From an uncultured archaeon (GTDB lineage: Archaea > Asgardarchaeota > Thorarchaeia > Thorarchaeales > Thorarchaeaceae), in contig CAZLEV010000007.1 in NCBI GenBank assembly GCA_964558645.1, positions 104,254-168,253 of the forward strand: DNA of 64,000 nucleotides, written 5' to 3'. The notes beneath the pieces were generated by a model. That model was not told the DNA's origin. It was given only the letters and a program-made list of their open reading frames with translations, and ran no database searches. Below, in pieces: positions 21,028 through 31,275 of this stretch. The translations under genes and the position numbers were made by a program. Within the stretch, counting starts at the first letter, position 1. The number at the start of each line of letters is the position of its first letter.

Positions 21028-21091
21028 CGAATCACCCAGGTACTAGGTGTGTTAATCCAAATTGTTTTTCAACATTTCGACTGTAGCATCA

Positions 21092-22186
21092 TCATCGGGG
21101 GGGTTCTATCTTATCTGTTCCTCTCATGACAAGGTCTGCAATCACGACTGCAGCAAGACATTCGACAACTGGCACCGCTCTCGGAACTATGCAGGGATCA
21201 TGCCGACCTTTTATACGAATCTCTGTGTTCTGTCCAGTTTCAAGATTCACTGTGCTTTGCGGCCCTGCGATGGAAGGTGTAGGCTTGAAAGCCAACCTGA
21301 ATACAATTGGCTGACCATTTGAAATTCCACCGAGGATTCCACCAGCGTCGTTCTTGAGTAATATCACTTTCCCGTTCTGGATTGCAAGAGGATCGTTGTT
21401 TTGGGAACCTTGACTGGCTGCACTGGAGAAACCCGCCCCGAACTCGATACCCTTTGCTCCGGGAATAGCAAACATCGCTTGGCTCACTACGCTCTCTATG
21501 GATCCGAAGAGAGGCTCACCCACGCCGACTGGAACACCCAGGATTCGGCATTCGATAATGCCGCCGATCGAATCTCCTTGACGCTTCACCCTCGCAATCT
21601 CCTTGGCCATTTCAAACGAGATTTTGTGGTCGGCACACCTGACCGCATTAGCATATGTTTGGGATCTGATTTCTTGATTAGTAGCCGGTGTATGGATTTT
21701 CACGTTACCAACTTGGACGACATGTGCAATCACCTCGATTCCAGCCCCTGCAAGCAGCTGCTTCGCAACGCTTCCGGCAGCAACCAGTGCAGCCGTCATT
21801 CTTCCTGAGAATACGCCGCTACCACGGTAGTCATTCTTTCCGTTGTATTTAATTCGGGCAGTATAATCGGCGGTACCTGGCCGAGGGGTGTCCTTAAGAT
21901 TGTCATAATGTGACGAGTTCGCGTCTGTATTGGGAATCGTCATGACCAAGGGGGCCTCCGTCGTCATCCCGTCAAACAGGCCGCTCAATACTGATATGGA
22001 GTCCATTTCTCTTCTTGCAGAGGTCAGCTTTCCTTGGCCTGGCCTTCGATGGTCTAAATCACTTTGGATGGCTTCCAAGTCAATGCCAAATCCCGGTGGA
22101 CACCCTTCTATGATGACACCAACGCAATTTCCATGCGACTCTCCGAAGACATGTATCTTGAACTTCTGGCCGAATGTGAATGTCAT
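21092..22186 (-). CDS. aroC: Chorismate synthase
   Basis: FGESHG, RPGTAD, FKPTPSI and GRHDPC. Confidence 0.95.
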   Translation of the reverse strand: MTFTFGQKFKIHVFGESHGNCVGVIIEGCPPGFGIDLEAIQSDLDHRRPGQGKLTSARREMDSISVLSGLFDGMTTEAPLVMTIPNTDANSSHYDNLKDTPRPGTADYTARIKYNGKNDYRGSGVFSGRMTAALVAAGSVAKQLLAGAGIEVIAHVVQVGNVKIHTPATNQEIRSQTYANAVRCADHKISFEMAKEIARVKRQGDSIGGIIECRILGVPVGVGEPLFGSIESVVSQAMFAIPGAKGIEFGAGFSSAASQGSQNNDPLAIQNGKVILLKNDAGGILGGISNGQPIVFRLAFKPTPSIAGPQSTVNLETGQNTEIRIKGRHDPCIVPRAVPVVECLAAVVIADLVMRGTDKIEPPR

Positions 22187-23487
22187 ATCTTTCCTCCTGA
22201 CAGTGTGTAGTTATTTGCGAGCTCAATTCTCCCTCCAAGAGTCTGAATGTCTCGGATGAAGTTGGGATAGCTCTTGCTTATGCATTCTACACCTTCTACC
22301 ACGGTGTTTCCGTCAGCAATCATACCTGCAAGAATGCAAGTCATCGCTATGCGATGATCGTTGTGGGAGTCAAGCGTGGCCCCCTTAAGCGTCGTGGGTC
22401 CTCTAATCTCAAGACCATCATCATTGATACTGATGTTAGCTCCCATTTTCCGGAGTTCAATGGAGATAGAAGCCAAGCGATTGCTTTCCTTGTAACGCAG
22501 CCTTGCCGCATTGTAGATTCGAGTTGTCCCATGCGCTTGAGTTGCAGCCAGGGTCAACACAGGGACAATATCTGGTGTTTGGCTCACGTCGATTGCGAGA
22601 GCCCGTAATTCTGAAAGACCAGTGGAGATGCTACGTCCTGTGTTTCTTACTGAAGCACCCATTTCATTGAGAATGTTGATGATATGGGCATCGCCCTGTT
22701 TCGAATCGCGTTTCAATCCAGTTACTCTGACATTCCCCCCTAGTGCTCCAGCGACCATCAAGAACGCTGCAGATGAATAATCACCTTCGACGTCAAACTC
22801 GTCTGAGTGGTACTCCTGGTTTCCAGGCATATGGATGTATTTCCAATTATCTGCTGCTTCGGAATAGACTCCAAAATGTGCCATCGTTTCAAGTGTAAGT
22901 TCGACGTAGGGCTTGGACGCCAACTCTGTTGTGATTTCTAGTGTTGTGTCTCCGACAGCCTTAGAGCATGCAAAGAGGAGGCCTGAGATGTACTGAGACG
23001 AAACATCCCCACGAATCCTGACAGAGCCTCCTCTCAGAAGTCCTCCGTGGACTTCTACGGGGGGCCGCCCGTTCGAGTTGATTGACTTCGCGTTTACGCC
23101 CAGTTGACGCAGACCGGAAACGAGATGTTTGATGGGTCTTCTGGACAGAGTCTTATCTCCTGTCAACACACATCTTCCATCTGCTAAGGCAGAAAGTGCA
23201 GTGAAGATCCTAAGAGTGGTGCCGGATGCCCGGCAATGCATTTCCGAGGCAGGAGCACGTAGTCTATTCGGCCCAGTTATCTCCGTGGTGATGCCCCTGC
23301 GAATATCTGCGCCCATCATGCTCGCGTTCTGTAGTGTGACTTCGGTATCGTCGCACAACAGAGGGTTGTTGATTCGTGTCGTTTCTGGAGAGAGAAGTCC
23401 GCATACAATAGCTCGATGTGTATGACTCTTTGACGGCGGAGTGCAGACAGTTCCGTCAACTTCAGAATTCCAGACATTTGCCCTCAG
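22183..23487 (-). CDS. aroA: EPSP synthase; probable CTG start at 23487
   Basis: PPSKSHTHRA lies in frame upstream of the tracked start; SSQYISG, RYKESNR, DHRIAM and KSYPNF motifs. Confidence 0.9.
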   Translation of the reverse strand: MRANVWNSEVDGTVCTPPSKSHTHRAIVCGLLSPETTRINNPLLCDDTEVTLQNASMMGADIRRGITTEITGPNRLRAPASEMHCRASGTTLRIFTALSALADGRCVLTGDKTLSRRPIKHLVSGLRQLGVNAKSINSNGRPPVEVHGGLLRGGSVRIRGDVSSQYISGLLFACSKAVGDTTLEITTELASKPYVELTLETMAHFGVYSEAADNWKYIHMPGNQEYHSDEFDVEGDYSSAAFLMVAGALGGNVRVTGLKRDSKQGDAHIINILNEMGASVRNTGRSISTGLSELRALAIDVSQTPDIVPVLTLAATQAHGTTRIYNAARLRYKESNRLASISIELRKMGANISINDDGLEIRGPTTLKGATLDSHNDHRIAMTCILAGMIADGNTVVEGVECISKSYPNFIRDIQTLGGRIELANNYTLSGGKI

Positions 23488-24005
23488 AGTCCAAGCCTCC
23501 TTCGAATATGATCTACAGTTTCACTCACACCCATTGTGTCCGTACAGACTTCTATGTCCTTGATGGCATCGTACAACCTACTTCTCTTTGCGAGAAGCTG
23601 TTTCACCTGCTCTATGCGTTTAGTTTCGTCCTCAGGCAAGAGCGGGCGGAGCTCAGAGGACCTAGCCCTTGCAGCGATTGTGGCAACAGACGCCCTCAAA
23701 AGAACAACCTGTGTGCGCTTGCTTATGATTTCGGAACTAGAAGGATATAGGAGTGCCCCACCACCAAAACTGATGACAGCGGAGTTGATTTGGCACACAT
23801 CCCTTACAACTCTCGCCTCAATCTCTCGAAAAGCCATTTCGCCAGATTCCGAAAAGATCTCACTAATGGATTTGCCTTCTTGGTGTTCGATTATCTGATC
23901 AGTATCACGAAATTCTCTCCCCAAGCTTGCGGCTAGTGCCTTGCCTATAGTGGTCTTCCCAGTAGCCATGAATCCAATCAGTCCGATGTTCGTCATACAA
24001 TCCAC
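23484..24005 (-). CDS. aroK: Shikimate kinase (bacterial AroK type)
   Basis: GFMATGKTT, GEMAFREIE, GGG and RPLL. Confidence 0.93.
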   Translation of the reverse strand: MDCMTNIGLIGFMATGKTTIGKALAASLGREFRDTDQIIEHQEGKSISEIFSESGEMAFREIEARVVRDVCQINSAVISFGGGALLYPSSSEIISKRTQVVLLRASVATIAARARSSELRPLLPEDETKRIEQVKQLLAKRSRLYDAIKDIEVCTDTMGVSETVDHIRRRLGL

Positions 24006-24856
24006 TAACTGTTTCCCCCTTTCAGGGCTTTGAGCACTGCCTTCTTCATAACATTGATTGGTGCCTTCTTACCGGTCCAAATCTCGAAAGAAGCGGCTCC
24101 TTGTTGCACAAGCATAGTCAACCCATTGATGGTCTTACATCCAGATTCCTGTGCCTTTCTAAGAAGCTGAGTGCGCAGAGGGTTGTAAATTAGATCCATG
24201 ACAATGTCAACTCTCGAAAGCACCTCTGCAGGAATCGGGGTATTGTCACTAGAATGCCCTGTCATTCCAACAGGAGTACAGTTTACCAGAAGACTTGATT
24301 CCGCAAGTTTGTTCTCAATTCTTTCTAGATTATGGCACTTCACTTCAGTTCTACTTCGCATTCGAACCAGATTTGCCAGACTCCTGGCCTTTGGTAGTGA
24401 CCTATTGAAGATGGTCAGCTCCTTCAACCCGGACCTGGCTAACGAAAATGAAACAGCTCTTGCAGCTCCACCGGCACCAATCAGTGTTGCCTTCTTGGTT
24501 TGAAGACTCACATCCGCCTCTTCAATCGCTCTCTCAAAGCCCCTCACATCTGTATTGCATCCCACAACTGTCCCTTTCTCTCGATAGAGCGTGTTTACAG
24601 AACCCACAGCAAATCCGATATTCGAAACAACCGGGACATGTTCTATGATTCTCGATTTGTACGGTATTGTGATGTTTGCTCCTTGTAGTTGGCCGGTAAG
24701 AATCGACTGGACTAGATCGGGCAGCCGAGCACCTTCCAAGACACAAGCTCGATACTCAAACTCGTTAGATAATCCCAGTGCAGAAAAAGCTGCATTATGC
24801 ATTACCGGACTCATTGAATGCTCCAGCGGATATCCCACAACAACGAATCTTTTCAC
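24005..24856 (-). CDS. aroE: Shikimate dehydrogenase
   Basis: HSMSPVMHN, NITIPYK, NTD, GAGGAA and DLIYNP. Confidence 0.95.
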   Translation of the reverse strand: MKRFVVVGYPLEHSMSPVMHNAAFSALGLSNEFEYRACVLEGARLPDLVQSILTGQLQGANITIPYKSRIIEHVPVVSNIGFAVGSVNTLYREKGTVVGCNTDVRGFERAIEEADVSLQTKKATLIGAGGAARAVSFSLARSGLKELTIFNRSLPKARSLANLVRMRSRTEVKCHNLERIENKLAESSLLVNCTPVGMTGHSSDNTPIPAEVLSRVDIVMDLIYNPLRTQLLRKAQESGCKTINGLTMLVQQGAASFEIWTGKKAPINVMKKAVLKALKGGNS

Positions 24857-25542
24857 AGGAGCACCTTCACAATTTTTCTCATCTGTGACAGGCTCATCTG
24901 GCCTGGAGCTGCTCGCCTTTGATTGTCCATAGAAACATACATGAATGGGGCACCCATGAGCAACGCATAGAGCCTACTGAGTCGCCCGAGGCGCCCCATT
25001 GCGAATGCAATCAGCGAATGTCGATTGTTGTGTTCAGCATCGTAGAGATGCATGATTCTTCGACAGTCATCGATTGAACTAGGGGTAGTCACTATCTTAA
25101 TAATGTCCGGATTTTGGATCAGCATACGGTCCCGCATCGAGGCAAGTTCACAATACTCAGGAGTGAAACTTTGATAGTGTTTTGATGCAATCAAGCGGCG
25201 ATTGAGAGATTTAGCTCTCTTTTTGACGCGTTCAAACAACTCTGCCTCAGTTTCCACCTCGACATCCACATATGAAGCGCCGGCATCTATGCCCTCAAGT
25301 AAGTGCCCAATCCGATCCTGCTCGCTACCTTTGTAATGGCCGCCATTCCCTAAAGATCTGCAAGTGGCAATAATCGGGGCACTGGATGCACCGTATATCT
25401 CATCTAAGTCTTCAATCTTGCACATAAAGTCCATTCGATGTTCGATCAGCTCTGCGTCACATGCTCTTACAAACTCGATGCACCTAGGTGCGTTTTCTGC
25501 CGTCATTGATACACAAAGTTTCATCGTCATCTCCCTATTCAC
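24853..25542 (-). CDS. aroD: Type I 3-dehydroquinate dehydratase
   Basis: EHRMD, IATCR, KIV, AMGRLGRLSR and APGQ. Confidence 0.92.
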   Translation of the reverse strand: MNREMTMKLCVSMTAENAPRCIEFVRACDAELIEHRMDFMCKIEDLDEIYGASSAPIIATCRSLGNGGHYKGSEQDRIGHLLEGIDAGASYVDVEVETEAELFERVKKRAKSLNRRLIASKHYQSFTPEYCELASMRDRMLIQNPDIIKIVTTPSSIDDCRRIMHLYDAEHNNRHSLIAFAMGRLGRLSRLYALLMGAPFMYVSMDNQRRAAPGQMSLSQMRKIVKVLL

Positions 25543-26627
25543 TCCTCAGTGTGGATATCGCCGCCAGAAACAGTGGTTCCTAGTGCAACTAGCTGAGTTC
25601 TTCTTTCTGCAGGAAGTCTGAAGCGTTGAGGCATCATCTCGCGTCGAGCAATGTCTGTCATGAATTCTCGAAACATGACAGGAGTGAGTGACTGGGGTCC
25701 ATCAACCAAAGCCTCCGTCGGATTCGGGTGAACTTCTATCATGACTCCATCAGCTCCAACAGCAAAACCCGCTCTAGCAAGAGGAATTACCAGGTTTCGC
25801 TTTCCAGCCGCATGACTGGGGTCAACAATCACCGGTAGGTGTGTCAGACTCCTCAATTCGGGAATAGCACACAAATCCAGTGTGAACCTGCTATACTGAT
25901 TGTACGTCCTCATTCCTCGTTCGCACAGTATTACCTGATTATTTCCTTCTGCCATCACATATTCTGCTGCAGAAAGGAGTTCAGTCAGCGTAGCCCACAT
26001 ACCTCGCTTCAATAAAACGGGTTTACGCGACCGACCTGCACGCTTGAGTAGAGAGTAGTTCTGCATATTTCTGGCTCCAATTTGAATGATGTCTACTGCT
26101 GCCTCTACAGCGGGAAAGCTCTCTGTATCTACGGCCTCAGAAACTACGGGAAGACCAGTTCGCCGTCGAGCCTCAGCCAGCAGGCTCAAGCCATGGTTGC
26201 CCAGACCCTGGAAAGAATAGGGCGAGGTCCGTGGTTTGAAGGCACCTCCTCGCAGGATGTCGCCTCCGCATTCTTTTACCAACTGAGCCGCTTCTATCAT
26301 CTGATCCATGGATTCAACACTGCACGGTCCTGCAATGACCACAGGTCGTTTACCCCCAATCTCACATCCACCTACTTCTACTACAGTTCTTTCAGGATGC
26401 ACTTCAATGTCTGCTAATCTATATGGTTTAGTTACACGAATGACTCTCATTACACCGGGCATTCCCGTGAAAGAGGAAACGTCTTGTACTCTCACATCTC
26501 CTGTGACGTTTATCACGGTTCGACTAATCCCGGGATTGACATGGCTCTTATAGCCCAGTTTCTCGATTCTTTCCAGGACTTCCGTCATTTGTTCGTGTGT
26601 TGCATTTGCGTACAGTATTACCAGCAT
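25539..26627 (-). CDS. aroF: DAHP synthase type I-beta with N-terminal regulatory domain
   Basis: IAGPCSVE, FKPRTSPYSFQG, QIGARNMQN and DPSH. Confidence 0.95.
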   Translation of the reverse strand: MLVILYANATHEQMTEVLERIEKLGYKSHVNPGISRTVINVTGDVRVQDVSSFTGMPGVMRVIRVTKPYRLADIEVHPERTVVEVGGCEIGGKRPVVIAGPCSVESMDQMIEAAQLVKECGGDILRGGAFKPRTSPYSFQGLGNHGLSLLAEARRRTGLPVVSEAVDTESFPAVEAAVDIIQIGARNMQNYSLLKRAGRSRKPVLLKRGMWATLTELLSAAEYVMAEGNNQVILCERGMRTYNQYSRFTLDLCAIPELRSLTHLPVIVDPSHAAGKRNLVIPLARAGFAVGADGVMIEVHPNPTEALVDGPQSLTPVMFREFMTDIARREMMPQRFRLPAERRTQLVALGTTVSGGDIHTEE

Positions 26628-26629
26628 TG

Positions 26630-27709
26630 TTATTCCATCCTTCTATTCGGTATCAAAGATCCCCCATCAACCATCATCATCTTGGTCCGTCCTATGTCAA
26701 CGAGTACGGGAACCCTGAGCTTATCTCGCCTGATTTTCTTGTCTTGTCGAATGGCTAACTCCATCTCGTCTGCATCGAAGGTAGGGGGTATCTCGGTAGG
26801 CAGCTCAAACATCGATAGAGTAGTAATCAGCAGTTCAAGTGAATCAGTATCAAACAGGCCCAATCTGGCCGCGAAGCGGGCTTCTTCCGCAATTCCAATT
26901 GCCACAGCGAATCCGTGCGGGAGTCTGTATCCTGCACAGACTTCTATTGCATGACCGACTGTGTGTCCATAGTTGAGAACCTCTCTCTCGCCTTTCTCCT
27001 CTCTTTCGTCCTCTTCAACAATCTGCGCCTTAGTCCTCAGGCACTTCTCAACAACCAATGCGAGTACTTCAGGTGTTCTCGAAAGGATATCCTGCCTATT
27101 TCCACGGATAAGCTCGAATAGATCCTTATCCAATGATACCCCATATTTGATGACTTCCGCAAGACCACTTCTGAATTCGCAAGTAGGCAGAGTCCCGAGA
27201 ACACAAACGTCGGCAATGACAGCGTGCGGTTGGTAGAATGTCCCTACAAGGTTCTTACCATGGGGTAGGTTTACTGCGGTCTTGCCTCCTATGGCGGAGT
27301 CTACTTGGGATAGTAGCGTTGTTGGAATCTGTACCAAACGCATTCCACGTTTGAATGTTGATGCCACAAAACCCGCCAGATCTCCAATGACGCCTCCCCC
27401 AAGTGCGACAACAACATCTGACCGTGCCGCAGTGTTCTTGGCGAAGAAATCGTAAATTTCCCGTGCTATCTCAAGGGATTTCATAGCCTCTCCCTGTTTG
27501 ACTGCCTTGGTGAATGACTTGAGTCCTACCTCCTTCATACCTCTTGAGAGTGGCTCGAGAAGTAACTCTGCTACGGTATCGTCAGTCAAGATAAAGGCTC
27601 TATCCCCTAAGTCAGCAATGAACTCACTGGCATTCTCTACTAGGTCCTGGCCGACAATGACCGGGTAGCTCCTACTTGTCGCTGTTACATCAAAAGTAGT
27701 ATATTTCAT
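26630..27709 (-). CDS. aroB: 3-dehydroquinate synthase
   Basis: GGGVIGD, PTTLLSQVDSAIGGKT and LNYGHTVGH. Confidence 0.95.
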   Translation of the reverse strand: MKYTTFDVTATSRSYPVIVGQDLVENASEFIADLGDRAFILTDDTVAELLLEPLSRGMKEVGLKSFTKAVKQGEAMKSLEIAREIYDFFAKNTAARSDVVVALGGGVIGDLAGFVASTFKRGMRLVQIPTTLLSQVDSAIGGKTAVNLPHGKNLVGTFYQPHAVIADVCVLGTLPTCEFRSGLAEVIKYGVSLDKDLFELIRGNRQDILSRTPEVLALVVEKCLRTKAQIVEEDEREEKGEREVLNYGHTVGHAIEVCAGYRLPHGFAVAIGIAEEARFAARLGLFDTDSLELLITTLSMFELPTEIPPTFDADEMELAIRQDKKIRRDKLRVPVLVDIGRTKMMMVDGGSLIPNRRME

Positions 27710-28590
27710 GGGACCACCTCAGATGTTATCTGATCTTCTAACATGCACAGGACGCGATACATGTCGCTATAGCTTTGAGTCAAATCTACAGTCCTTCCGA
27801 ACTCTGCTTTGATCCCCCTACAAAACTCTCCAAAACCTTCCCCTTCCCCATTGAGGTCTCTTAGACCTGACGCTGTATGGTCGTGGAACTTCTTCAGAAT
27901 TTCAAATGCGTGGCTGTTTCGTTTATGTAGGCCCTCATGCAAAGCGCAAGCATTGAACATCACTCCTCCGGTGAGCATCAGCTGCATCCTGAAGGTCGTC
28001 CCTCCTAGTTTCTGTAGAGTGGTTATGTTTTCGTTTCGGAGGACTGACGCAATAATCAGATTAACAAAGTAAGGTAGAGAGATCGTGAGGGCCATGATTC
28101 TATCATGTTCTTCTGAATCAACAACAATAATCTCAAAATCCGGGAACAGACGCCTAGCAGTATCTAATTCCTTGTTCTTGTTGATAAGGGGTATGAGGGC
28201 CATCCGCTTCTTCAGAATCTCCGCTCCCTCTCCAAACAATGGATGTACACTCAGTAATCTGACACCATGCTGCTTCAGACTGCGTAGTGTTGCTGGTATT
28301 CCCGCCTTGATTGAGGAGATCTCACAGAGAACTGCCTCTTTCTTCATTCTCGGTATGACTTCTCTAATGACTGCGCCAGTGCTCTCCATCGGAACCGAGA
28401 TTATGGCCACATCAGCGTTGGATACGGCAGTGGTGTTGTCGTTCACGACTCGTATGCCAAGTTCTTTCTCTAAATGCTTGATACTTGGTGCCAACGGGTC
28501 TGATACGATTATATTGCTCTTGTATGAGGAGAAGTAGTTGACAAGCAGCTTCCCCATTCTTCCAGCACCTCCTACTATTGCCACATTCAT
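27706..28590 (-). CDS. tyrA: Prephenate dehydrogenase
   Basis: MNVAIVGGAGRMG Rossmann start at an ATGA overlap; SSIK, HPLFG and EHDRIMA. Confidence 0.9.
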   Translation of the reverse strand: MNVAIVGGAGRMGKLLVNYFSSYKSNIIVSDPLAPSIKHLEKELGIRVVNDNTTAVSNADVAIISVPMESTGAVIREVIPRMKKEAVLCEISSIKAGIPATLRSLKQHGVRLLSVHPLFGEGAEILKKRMALIPLINKNKELDTARRLFPDFEIIVVDSEEHDRIMALTISLPYFVNLIIASVLRNENITTLQKLGGTTFRMQLMLTGGVMFNACALHEGLHKRNSHAFEILKKFHDHTASGLRDLNGEGEGFGEFCRGIKAEFGRTVDLTQSYSDMYRVLCMLEDQITSEVVP

Positions 28591-29984
28591 TGCAGAACAC
28601 CCTCCATGGCCTTTACAGCCCTGACGATGACGTCTTCTGGTTGACAAACTGATACTCTGAAGCAGTCTGAGTAGCCTGGACCATACGTTGAGCCGGGAGT
28701 GACACACACACCAGTTTCCGCGAGGAGGCGCTCTGCAAACTGAACGCCGTCCATATCACTCCGAGCTATCCTTGGGAAGACGTAGAAGCCTCCTTGTGGT
28801 GGAGCGAAGGACACCGGTAGCCGAGCCAGATGAGCAGATAGAAGGTTCAGCCTCCTGGTCACGGTCTTCACATGATGGCGTAACTCGTCATCGCAGTCAA
28901 GTGCAGCAATGCCTGCATGTTGAATGAATTCTGGGGTGCTGGTGAGGCACAGATTCTGCAGTTTCGTCATCTCATCGATTGTGTCCTTGTCAGACACAGC
29001 ATAGCCCAGTCGAAAACCAGTCATTCCATAGCTCTTGGAGAAAGAATTCACGTAGATGTGTTTGCTGTTCGTGAATTGAAGTATGCTTGTCGGACGTATG
29101 AGTGAGAAATCCGAGTACACTTCATCACTAAGAATAGAAATATCCCGTGATTCAGCAAGCTCCACAATCTGACTGAATGAGTGCCGTCCAATAACCTGAC
29201 CTGTAGGATTAGCAGGAGAGTTCAGAATAATCATAGTTGTGGTGCTGTTTATGGCATCCTCTAACTCACCCAAGTTGGGAATCCAATTATTGTCGATTTG
29301 AGTGGAAACGTGGACAGGTGTTGCACCCGTTGCCTTTACAACATCATCATAGGCTGGGTACGAAGGATCAAATATAATCACTTCATCTCCTGGACTACTA
29401 TTTGTGGTAACACCCAAGAAGAGTGCGAATCTTCCGCCTGTGGTGATGAGGACCTCATCTGCTGAGATTCTTGTGTTATGCTGCTCGCCGAGATGGTCGG
29501 CGACCTTTTTTCGAAGAGCGTAGATACCCGCCGATGCTGTGTATCGAGTTAGGCCCTGTGAAACAGCTTCCATCATTGCCTTCCTGACTGCATCTGGTGG
29601 ACCAAAGTCAGGCTCCCCGATTTCAAGATGGGTGATAGGTCGTCCAGTCTTCTCTAAGGCCTTGGCCTTCTGCCATATGTCGTATGCTGTCAAAGGTGCT
29701 GAAGGCCGTATGATTTGGCGCTGAACGTTCTTTGATTCCGCAATCAGGAAATTCAGCAGTCTCAGAGCGAATCCTTTGTCATGATTGTCAGAATCACATT
29801 GATTGACCACCGATATCCTGAGATCACGCTCAACTTCCTTATTCAGCACAGGATTTCCGAGCCGTGACTTTGCGTGAGCCACCTCCAAAGCAAGACAAGT
29901 ACGTTTTCCTGCTAGAGAAACGATCTCCAACGTCAGTTTCTTGATTAGATTCCTTGTTCCTCGTAGCTTCGCGTTTTCATCCAA
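28587..29984 (-). CDS. Chorismate mutase (AroQ)-class I aromatic aminotransferase fusion
   Basis: N-terminal LRG…KR…VAHAK…PV…E mutase helices, then IGEPDF, NSPANPTG and SFSKSYGMTGFRLG; TTG 29984 follows a GGAGGTG SD. Confidence 0.85.
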   Translation of the reverse strand: MDENAKLRGTRNLIKKLTLEIVSLAGKRTCLALEVAHAKSRLGNPVLNKEVERDLRISVVNQCDSDNHDKGFALRLLNFLIAESKNVQRQIIRPSAPLTAYDIWQKAKALEKTGRPITHLEIGEPDFGPPDAVRKAMMEAVSQGLTRYTASAGIYALRKKVADHLGEQHNTRISADEVLITTGGRFALFLGVTTNSSPGDEVIIFDPSYPAYDDVVKATGATPVHVSTQIDNNWIPNLGELEDAINSTTTMIILNSPANPTGQVIGRHSFSQIVELAESRDISILSDEVYSDFSLIRPTSILQFTNSKHIYVNSFSKSYGMTGFRLGYAVSDKDTIDEMTKLQNLCLTSTPEFIQHAGIAALDCDDELRHHVKTVTRRLNLLSAHLARLPVSFAPPQGGFYVFPRIARSDMDGVQFAERLLAETGVCVTPGSTYGPGYSDCFRVSVCQPEDVIVRAVKAMEGVLQ

Positions 29985-30114
29985 TATCAGACCACACCTC
30001 CAGAAAAGCAAAGCCATACTCTCCGATAAATGACCAATAAACTTGTGACCACGCTGGGTATTTCGATAGAATCGGCATTTGGACTTCTGACTTCTATAAA
30101 CATAAGACACCACC

Positions 30115-30199
30115 AAAACGAAAAGGCTCGACACAGAGGTCGATATCGTCAGTAGCGTCTCGACTTACAGATAATAACTATAATAGCCACTATACTGAC
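30115..30199 (-). promoter_or_regulatory. Putative attenuator RNA with alternative pairings and a U-tract
   Basis: GUCAGUA/UACUGAC (1:2), GUCGA/UCGAC (2:3) and UCGAC/GUCGA (3:4), followed by UUUUCGUUUU. Confidence 0.6.
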
Positions 30200-30245
30200 A
30201 GGATTTCCCTGTCGTACGGATGTTTGCGGCTATTCCTCTGTTCAT
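30165..30245 (-). CDS. Tyr-rich leader peptide MNRGIAANIRTTGKSCQYSGYYSYYL
   Basis: ATG…TAA over 27 codons; five TAT codons among the last nine sense codons; directly upstream of the Tyr operon. Confidence 0.75.
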   Translation of the reverse strand: MNRGIAANIRTTGKSCQYSGYYSYYL

Positions 30246-30279
30246 CGAAACGTTCACTGAGCCCGTTCACGACCGTTAC

Positions 30280-30297
30280 CCCTAATATACTTTGTCG
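30280..30297 (-). promoter_or_regulatory. Candidate BRE/TATA for the leader-aro transcript
   Basis: CGACAAAGTATATTA lies about 40 nt upstream of the leader ATG. Confidence 0.4.
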
Positions 30298-30519
30298 GTA
30301 GAATTTCACTTTCGATACGTTCATTTTGTCATATTGATGGACGAAGCGCACGGACTATGCACACGGGTTCCAAGAGCGTCGAGAGCTACTTGACCACGAC
30401 TGCTTTTCGTTGATGCCGTTTCCAGAGTTACTAAGTTTGGGCATCTACTCCTTCATGGTAGTATTTGGATAAATTCTATATTGCACCAATGCATAGATGC
30501 ACAGCAGGTCGCTGTGAAC

Positions 30520-31275
30520 ATGGAATCAGAAACGCCGCTGTCTGAATCTGAATTGACGAGATACGATCGACAAATCATGGTTGATGATTGGGGACGGAAA
30601 GGGCAAGGGAGATTGAAGGACTCGACAGTTCTCATAGCAGGCGCGGGCGGCCTAGGGTGTCCTGCTGCTCTATACTTGACCGCCGCAGGTATCGGGAAGA
30701 TTGTGCTCGTAGATAAAGATGAGTTTGAGCTAAGCAATCTCAATCGGCAGGTTCTTGCTTGGGAGCAGGATATCGGCCAGCCCAAGGCCGCATCTGTGGC
30801 CGAGAAACTTCGGGCATTGAACTCACATGTTGAGGTCGATGCAAGGATTGCGGAGATTACCGAAGAGAATGTGAGTGGTATACTCAACGGTTCAACTGTG
30901 GTGGTTGATGCCATGGACAACTGGGCTACTCGGTTCCTTTTGAATCAGGAGTGTGTCAAGCAACGAATCCCATTTGTGCATGCGGGCATCCATGGCCTCT
31001 ATGGACAGGTAACGACCATAATCCCTGGAAAGGGACCCTGTCTTCGATGCATTTTGTCAGAGGATCCAAAAGAAGTAGCAACGTTCCCTGTAATTGGTGC
31101 AACACCTGGACTGTTTGCTATGCTGCAGGTAATGGAAGTTCTAAAGATCATTGTTGGGTTTGGCGAAACATTGGTTGGAAAGATGCTGCTATTCGATGGC
31201 GAACGAATGGATTGCATGTCCACAGAGGTGAGTCATAGAAAAGACTGTCCAGTCTGTTCACACCTCTGGGCGTGA
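30520..31275 (+). CDS. MoeB/ThiF/UbaA E1-like adenylyltransferase
   Basis: RYDRQ, GAGGLG, SNLNRQ, CLRC and CPVC. Confidence 0.92.
   Translation: MESETPLSESELTRYDRQIMVDDWGRKGQGRLKDSTVLIAGAGGLGCPAALYLTAAGIGKIVLVDKDEFELSNLNRQVLAWEQDIGQPKAASVAEKLRALNSHVEVDARIAEITEENVSGILNGSTVVVDAMDNWATRFLLNQECVKQRIPFVHAGIHGLYGQVTTIIPGKGPCLRCILSEDPKEVATFPVIGATPGLFAMLQVMEVLKIIVGFGETLVGKMLLFDGERMDCMSTEVSHRKDCPVCSHLWA

Follow-up and report, generated by a model that had tools for sequence, protein, structure and literature searches.

The DNA analyzed here (the window) is a 64,000-nt stretch from an uncultured archaeon of the Thorarchaeaceae, within the Asgardarchaeota (GenBank assembly GCA_964558645.1, contig CAZLEV010000007.1, positions 104,254 to 168,253 of the forward strand). 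Its minus strand carries an operon for the shikimate pathway and tyrosine synthesis, headed by a leader in which the first frame is a short, tyrosine-rich upstream open reading frame (uORF1). A preliminary description of the window had read this leader as a tyrosine-sensing attenuator of the bacterial type. The leader contains a promoter, two short frames, several helices and a purine-rich box just behind the uORF1 stop codon that can pair with either of two other parts of the RNA (Table 1).

Pfam searches bore out the operon content given earlier, namely CM_2 and Aminotran_1_2 domains in one fusion protein (chorismate mutase-aminotransferase), a prephenate dehydrogenase (TyrA), 3-dehydroquinate synthase, 3-deoxy-D-arabino-heptulosonate 7-phosphate (DAHP) synthase, DHquinase_I, shikimate dehydrogenase, SKI, 5-enolpyruvylshikimate-3-phosphate synthase and chorismate synthase. 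The observation that the operon lacks PheA and Trp genes extends to the whole genome for prephenate dehydratase and the chorismate-binding TrpE family: neither gave a match in this 93%-complete genome, while the same searches were positive in 14/14 control genomes. With TyrA present and no match to the other two, the operon makes tyrosine only, the very amino acid enriched in the leader, as had been proposed. The host is indeed an archaeon, with a TATA-binding protein in its genome, and a full-length eukaryote-type actin gene (contig C4:182223-183326; PF00022, 438 bits) marks that genome as Asgard.

Table 1. Positions of the leader elements and operon genes in the window
Feature	Position	Strand	Details
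BRE/TATA promoter element (BRE, transcription factor B recognition element)	30281..30296	minus	GACAAAGTATATTAGG; conserved, with the form AAAGTATA(T/A)TAG in orthologs
P1, 5' strand	30245..30258	minus	CGUUUCGA (30252-30245) plus start-codon extension AGUG (30258-30255); pairs with the post-stop box
uORF1	30165..30257	minus	30 codons, GTG start, internal ATG 30245; encodes VNVSMNRGIAANIRTTGKSCQYSGYYSYYL; five TAT between 30194 and 30171
Px	within 30185..30231	minus	AGCCGC 30231-30226 / GUGGCU 30190-30185; RNAalifold
P2 hairpin	within 30185..30231	minus	GACAGG 30213-30208 / CCUGUC 30202-30197; RNAalifold; nested in Px
Post-stop box	30146..30163	minus	UCGAGACGCUACUGACGA; purine-rich, shared strand of the proposed switch; CGAGA core invariant in 14 aligned leaders
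P4 hairpin	30128..30143	minus	UCGAC cucugu GUCGA; at the equivalent position nearly all orthologs have a hairpin, one of them very weak
U-rich tract and Shine-Dalgarno element of uORF2 (SD2)	30106..30124	minus	UUUUCGUUUU (30124-30115) and GGUGGUG (30114-30108); near-invariant
uORF2	29987..30103	minus	38 codons; stop TGA 29989-29987, 2 nt ahead of the first enzyme start
Chorismate mutase-aminotransferase fusion	28587..29984	minus	Pfam CM_2 + Aminotran_1_2
Remainder of operon	21092..28707	minus	tyrA, aroB, DAHP synthase (FXD domain), aroD, aroE, aroK, aroA, aroC; Pfam E values 1e-14 to 1e-127

A tyrosine-rich leader frame conserved ahead of the operon

The 26-codon minus-strand frame reported previously, running from ATG 30245 to TAA 30167-30165 and ending QYSGYYSYYL, was confirmed base for base (translation MNRGIAANIRTTGKSCQYSGYYSYYL) and lies about 260 nt upstream of the operon's first gene, where it had been placed. 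Its final nine codons include five for tyrosine, all TAT, at 30194-92, 30185-83, 30182-80, 30176-74 and 30173-71. The frame thus stands, but its assumed start does not: conservation places the start at GTG 30257 in the same frame, which makes the ATG codon 5. Five tyrosine codons in a nine-codon window are improbable by chance (p ~2.5e-6), and among the short frames in 2203 upstream regions of its own genome this one ranked first for tyrosine and third for any amino acid. Because so many trials were made, however, the tyrosine run alone proves little.

We collected orthologs of the chorismate mutase-aminotransferase fusion across the family (86 species genomes) and read the DNA upstream of each. 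This yielded 22 orthologous operons from seven genera, with enzymes 40-54% identical, and all 22 carried a homologous leader made of the same parts: the BRE/TATA element, uORF1, the helices P1, Px and P2, a hairpin with a U-rich tract, and a Shine-Dalgarno element with uORF2. Twenty of these form a core set, and two (G008 and G009) are divergent in their nucleotides and still keep a Tyr/Phe-rich frame. Conservation of the leader in 22/22 operons rules out chance as the source of the tyrosine run. A covariance model built from 14 leaders and searched against the 86 family genomes found exactly one copy per genome in 23 of them; with one exception, the copies either sit directly upstream of a chorismate mutase-aminotransferase ortholog or lie on a piece of contig too short to reach the gene. 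The exception is a decayed copy in genome G084 (contig C148; L172:484-636), in which the frame and the box are recognizable and the GGUG of SD2 is gone; a gene resembling S-adenosylmethionine-dependent methyltransferases follows it instead of the operon, and the copy is probably a remnant of operon loss.

Among these relatives, uORF1 is open in 22/22 leaders, with 29-32 codons in the 20 core leaders and 23 and 26 in the two divergent ones. Each leader has 2-5 tyrosine codons among the last ten, so that the Tyr-rich uORFs that the preliminary description had said should be sought in orthologous leaders were found in every case, and codons 26 and 28 are TAT in 14/14 aligned leaders. Clades differ by insertions and deletions of 3 or 6 nt. 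Changes of 1 nt are also seen close to the end of uORF1, and a different stop is then used, the stop shifting along with the frame. The peptides end in YSGYYSYYL, FSGYYSYSYSL, YSGVYYSYYS, YSGSYSYRA, YSGFYYFIL and FYHSYRDHR in different relatives, giving a conserved C-terminal motif (Y/F)SG.Y.SY. Comparison of these leaders indicates that uORF1 is a conserved tyrosine-rich leader frame, apparently translated, at the head of the tyrosine/shikimate operon.

Such a motif might also be expected if uORF1 encoded a functional tyrosine-rich small peptide, for instance the precursor of a modified peptide, whose position ahead of the operon was incidental. We regard this as very improbable. Outside the motif the peptide lacks conservation and there is no third-position bias, and the element is found only at the tyrosine operon. 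A ThiF/MoeB-like E1 gene, named from its translation alone, lies divergent from the leader at 30481-31275 on the plus strand; its linkage to the leader was considered and rejected, as this neighbor is not conserved at other loci.

Upstream of uORF1, the distance from the TATA element to the GTG or ATG start is fixed at 31-33 nt in 20/20 core leaders, and the promoter at this distance is the only conserved one. As the sequence between the two is not conserved while their spacing is, we infer that uORF1 is essentially leaderless. Downstream, 20 leaders share the sequence TT.TT(T/C)TGGTG with little or no change, and an ATG follows the SD2 element after 9-13 nt in 22/22. We take UU.UU(U/C)UGGUG to be a good Shine-Dalgarno sequence for the archaeal 16S rRNA 3' end. 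The frame that begins at this ATG, uORF2, is 25-52 codons long and reaches to within a few nucleotides of the chorismate mutase-aminotransferase start in 22/22 leaders, commonly with TTGA, ATGA or TGATG overlaps, although its peptide is poorly conserved; across this stretch the two alternative frames stay open in just 2/44 cases. Ending at the enzyme start in all leaders is a signature of translational coupling, and coupling by termination-reinitiation has been demonstrated in archaea. In the window the most likely start of the first enzyme is TTG 29984, with GGAGGUG ahead of it at 30001-29995, and the orthologous enzymes begin at the uORF2 stop; an in-frame ATG at 30017 may be an alternative start. 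The first ~35 nt of uORF2 are kept at the nucleotide level across clades (for example, ACUCCAAAUGCC), and we saw by eye a CUCC in this 5' part that may pair with the enzyme Shine-Dalgarno GGAG(G) and so enforce coupling. No conserved local hairpin that would hide SD2 was found inside uORF2.

Helices and competing pairings in the leader RNA

Three helices recur among the leaders. P1 joins the nucleotides just after the uORF1 start codon to the CGAGA box just after the stop, and Px (in its general form AGCCAC with GUGGCU) and P2 together enclose the first tyrosine codon. In Px and P2, 85-97% of the cells are paired, with GC-to-AU covariation in Px and five covarying pairs in P2; P1 has three pairs changed on both sides in a 22-sequence alignment and two in an independent MAFFT alignment of 14 sequences. 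Over all three helices, 88.5% of the cells in the MAFFT alignment pair, compared with 33-37% when the partners are slid by 1-3 columns, eight pairs are changed on both sides, and the covariation score exceeds that of 500/500 shuffles. The corresponding figures from the 22-sequence alignment (88.8% paired, 10 pairs changed on both sides) lean towards structure, since that alignment was fitted to the model. Covarying stems had been named earlier as a feature to look for in relatives; they exist, as P1, Px and P2, and not as the pairings listed then.

The post-stop box begins 4-6 nt past the uORF1 stop (15-19 nt in one clade). Two regions are complementary to it, namely the mRNA 5' end with the start codon of uORF1 and the region of the U-rich tract and SD2. 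At the start codon, the GUG or AUG of uORF1 pairs with CAC or UCA of the box. The sequence of the 5' end, GUGA..CUCUCG, resembles that of the SD2 region, UUCU..GGUGA; both fit the CGAGAG-UCAC of the box, and because nucleotides are shared, the box:5' end and box:SD2 pairings exclude each other, at least partly.

We compared the duplex energies of cognate and non-cognate partners at the level of clades, using 5040 permutations. Cognate duplexes of box and SD2 were stronger than non-cognate ones (trace -89.0 kcal/mol; 8/5040), and the box with the first 22 nt of the mRNA, the P1 side, gave 66/5040, while two control combinations were not significant. The control that paired the tyrosine-codon region with SD2 gave 3150/5040. 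The preliminary description was therefore right that the leader RNA has mutually exclusive pairings, and it is their identity that changes, from the set proposed there to box:5' end against box:SD2.

That earlier set followed the bacterial attenuators. Its segments are all present at the positions listed: GUCAGUA at 30199-30193, GCUACUGAC at 30156-30148, GUCGA at 30164-30160, UCGAC at 30143-30139 and GUCGA at 30132-30128, followed by UUUUCGUUUU at 30124-30115. Between clades, no covariation is seen (507/5040 permutations) for pairing of the first segment, over the first tyrosine codons, with GCUACUGAC. The proposed antiterminator, in which GUCGA 30164-60 would pair with UCGAC 30143-39, does not outperform shuffled sequence (z = -0.5), and relatives lack an equivalent of it.

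The last two of these segments form the hairpin P4, on which a classical trp/phe-type transcription attenuation would depend. In such a scheme P4 and the U-run would be the terminator, with an antiterminator forming when a ribosome stalls on the tyrosine codons, or, in a variant, uncoupling of ribosome and RNA polymerase would expose the U-rich tract to the termination factor FttA/aCPSF1. Leader frame, regulatory codons and operon do stand in the bacterial order, and most orthologs have a hairpin followed by a U-rich tract, with a stem sequence that differs from one to another (UUGGC/GCCAA, GACCUG/CAGGUC, UCAGCAC/GUGCUGA and others). The window's own copy (30143-30128 plus the T-run) looks like a terminator and was picked up by a simple terminator scan, with one found where 0.3 was expected. 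Among the orthologs, however, two clades have an interrupted U-run (UUGUUCU) and two others have it 8-10 nt away from the stem, and archaeal termination rules differ. No alternative partner of the P4 5' strand is conserved or exceeds shuffled sequence, with z near 0 in most leaders, and in most of the 20 leaders folded with a masked ribosome P4 stays formed at most ribosome positions; the window's own leader is an exception, losing P4 at the last two tyrosine codons and at the stop. Pairing potential with the box, together with SD2, explains why the U-rich tract is conserved. Among the 20 leaders we thus found no conserved antiterminator and terminator hairpins between which a ribosome would select, and we consider transcription attenuation of this kind distinctly unlikely as the main mechanism; classical or FttA-dependent termination is possible as an added layer. 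The two conserved partners of the box, the 5' end and SD2, point instead to control of translation, and the best reading is that the output of the switch is mainly translational.

A probable ribosome-read tyrosine sensor and its alternatives

Taken together, the short frame on the operon transcript 5' of the first biosynthetic gene, its cluster of codons matching the operon's product and the competing pairings around it make it probable, on balance, that the leader is a tyrosine sensor read by the ribosome, that is, a leader-peptide attenuator controlling the tyrosine/shikimate operon. The sensing part of the preliminary description is accordingly supported, and its terminator/antiterminator hairpins are not.

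The wiring that we propose, including the direction of the switch, is more tentative, and we hold it with somewhat less than even confidence. Transcription would start no more than 1-3 nt away from the uORF1 start codon, or at the codon itself, and the progress of a ribosome on uORF1 would depend on charged tRNA-Tyr through the tyrosine codons in the last third of the frame. The box would pair either with the extreme 5' end, forming P1 and burying the uORF1 start, or with the U-rich tract and SD2, and translation of uORF2 would be coupled to the first enzyme gene by the overlap of stop and start. When tyrosine is scarce, the pioneer ribosome would stall on the tyrosine codons, short of the box, and during the stall the vacated 5' end could capture the box before SD2 is made. 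SD2 would then emerge free, allowing translation of uORF2 and the operon, and further loading of ribosomes on uORF1 would be blocked. When tyrosine is plentiful, the ribosome would reach the stop codon and occupy or unzip the box, leaving the 5' end free for reloading; after ribosome release, the box would take SD2 and expression would be damped. That both frames are translated, that tRNA-Tyr is sensed and that the switch works in this direction are thus predictions of the model.

Ensemble folding of the 20 leaders with ribosome masks agreed with some of these steps. In nascent RNA, in which SD2 is not yet made, the probability that the box is paired with the 5' end was 0.92 without a ribosome, 0.83-0.88 with a ribosome on the first two tyrosine codons, 0.72 on the last tyrosine codon and 0.30 on the stop codon. 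When a ribosome was placed at the 5' end of full-length RNA, the box moved to SD2 (P = 0.74).

Several observations weigh against the proposed sensor or its direction. In the same calculations, the probability that the SD2 core is unpaired was 0.21 without a ribosome, 0.17 with a ribosome stalled on the tyrosine codons, 0.28 at the stop and 0.11 at the 5' end, so that equilibrium masks gave no clean switch and the core was mostly paired in every state. As a tyrosine stall did not consistently open SD2, we rejected equilibrium mask folding as a guide to switch direction; at face value it would make the stall slightly repressive, and for its direction the model accordingly depends on kinetics during transcription. 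The model also requires P1 to close around a stalled ribosome, which is unusual, and a queue of ribosomes reaching back to the 5' end would reverse the outcome. Some orthologs retain only two or three tyrosine codons. Sister leaders for other amino acids were sought across the window's own genome and none emerged; the highest-ranking short frames rich in Thr, Met, Leu or Ile stand ahead of unrelated genes (for example, RIO kinase, MoxR ATPase and DFP) and were rejected. Finally, the core UAUAGYUAU is invariant at the nucleotide level, its tyrosine codons being TAT and never TAC and its serine codons always AGY, in a genome with a TAT:TAC usage of 1:1 and a single tRNA-Tyr(GUA) gene. These invariant codons imply a constraint at the RNA level as well. 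The unpaired columns of uORF1 show no codon-position periodicity (0.89/0.96/0.91 bits), a flat profile that makes periodicity uninformative as a coding test for this leader peptide.

The last two points are what one would expect of a structured cis-regulatory RNA in which the open frame is secondary, whether a riboswitch for tyrosine or an intermediate, the site of an RNA-binding regulator, or a T-box-like sensor of tRNA-Tyr. The closed multi-helix domain with its covariation fits such an RNA as well, and the T-box-like option could draw on the unpaired UAU codons and on a UGGU complementary to ACCA. Several features speak against an RNA of this kind. The frame is open in 22/22 leaders, its indels are multiples of three and its stop moves with it; the TATA box and an RTG are spaced by a constant 31-33 nt; the enriched codons are exactly those of the pathway product; and G008 and G009 keep the Tyr/Phe-rich frame despite their nucleotide divergence. 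Rfam gave no credible match: nothing reached the gathering score in the whole 64-kb window, and the sole match in the leader at E<10 was a spurious one to a long noncoding RNA (E = 6). TRAP-like (U/G)AG repeats and a T-box were tried as specific readings and rejected, the spacing being irregular by eye and Rfam lending no support. We therefore judge a structured RNA without a sensing frame to be unlikely, and favor the ribosome-read sensor.

Related systems and aromatic amino acid metabolism in the family

Leader-peptide attenuation is a textbook bacterial mechanism, and full-text literature searches found no published archaeal leader peptide that senses an amino acid; one paper mentions in passing that uORFs attenuate in archaea. 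Like trpL, pheL-pheA, hisL and aroR, the Asgard leader places a short product-rich frame before a biosynthetic operon and has overlapping alternative pairings. The nearest relative in subject is the aroR leader of Corynebacterium glutamicum, which heads a DAHP-synthase operon as the Asgard leader does; its Phe-Tyr-Phe leader precedes the aroF operon and responds to phenylalanine, not tyrosine (reviewed in PMC11802643). In contrast to the enterobacterial and aroR type, the Asgard leader has no conserved alternation of terminator and antiterminator, its leader frame is leaderless, its codons are specific for tyrosine, and the regulated step is apparently initiation at the second uORF.

In logic, the nearest published relatives are the leaderless poly-Cys short frames of mycobacteria, translational attenuators in which a duplex hides the next gene's ribosome-binding site (the Ms5788A class; Canestrari et al., bioRxiv 10.1101/834739). 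Two features of that class are present here. As in mycobacteria, a leaderless short frame with clustered codons for the product is the first cistron of a biosynthetic operon, and a sequestering duplex, box:SD2, is predicted in all clades at -9 to -20 kcal/mol. A third is absent: in the mycobacterial class the stalled ribosome itself blocks the sequestering structure, whereas in the Asgard leader the tyrosine region is not complementary to SD2 and, for most of the tyrosine codons, the box lies beyond the footprint of a ribosome stalled there. The sequestering strand instead follows the stop codon, its competitor is the 5' end of the mRNA including the uORF1 start, a coupled uORF2 is interposed, and the host is an archaeon. 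With no terminator/antiterminator pair and with the stalled ribosome off the sequestering strand, the Asgard leader falls outside both the mycobacterial and the aroR families. It also resembles the translational attenuation of ermC and cat, where the position of a ribosome on the leader frame rearranges helices that hide a downstream Shine-Dalgarno sequence. There, however, the signal is a drug-dependent arrest by the nascent peptide, whereas here it would be codon supply, and the four consecutive segments of ermC/cat lie downstream of the start without the 5'-end pairing of the Asgard leader.

We put forward, with reserve and as something that may well prove otherwise, the view that the leader represents genuine ribosome-mediated amino acid attenuation in an Asgard archaeon with a new wiring, in which a post-stop box toggles between a leaderless start and the Shine-Dalgarno of a coupled uORF2 and a stalled pioneer ribosome locks the expressing fold, and that it is one of a wider, undescribed set of aromatic leader peptides ahead of shikimate operons in archaea. 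If this is true, sensing of charged tRNA by translating ribosomes would also control operons in the closest prokaryotic relatives of eukaryotes, linking the attenuators of bacteria to the uORF control of eukaryotes. The leader would then offer a defined element of 200 nt with which leaderless initiation and the coupling of transcription to translation could be tested in archaea. Its comparative support is unusually full, and its small size allows a direct test.

The leader would also help in annotating metabolism. Chorismate synthase is present in 25 of the 86 family genomes, largely those that bear the leader, and TrpE in 5/86. The shikimate pathway is thus an accessory module in this Asgard family, and most members are probably auxotrophic for aromatic amino acids. 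Judged by gene content, most carriers of the pathway appear to make tyrosine alone, which fits a sensor built on tyrosine codons. Outside the family, the chorismate mutase-aminotransferase fusions of Nitrososphaeria (ammonia-oxidizing archaea) were examined and set aside as uninformative, the gene lying after aroC without a leader.

TrpE-bearing genomes of the family have a trp-type shikimate operon of the form trpE-trpG-aroB-DAHPS-trpD-trpC-trpF-trpB...aroC (loci L173-L176; G008, G009, G014 and G021). These operons are preceded by a conserved short frame with a Shine-Dalgarno sequence and an ATG, which contains one conserved tryptophan codon in the context ..RRDC(H/V)W.. (for example, L169:2062-2180). 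The TrpE frame is the +1 frame of this ATG, is open from just after it, and encodes a conserved TGGIA(I/F)G. In G008 and G009 the first canonical start is codon 45 and codon 65 of this frame, and the conserved stretch precedes it by 35-50 codons. This arrangement could be a tryptophan leader that overlaps a non-canonical TrpE start, or a +1 frameshift. On contig C28 of G009 (~21050-21500; L007/L174), the tyrosine leader and its chorismate mutase-aminotransferase gene are divergent from the trp short frame and the trpE operon, and the start sites of the tyrosine leader and the trp frame lie only ~115 nt apart.

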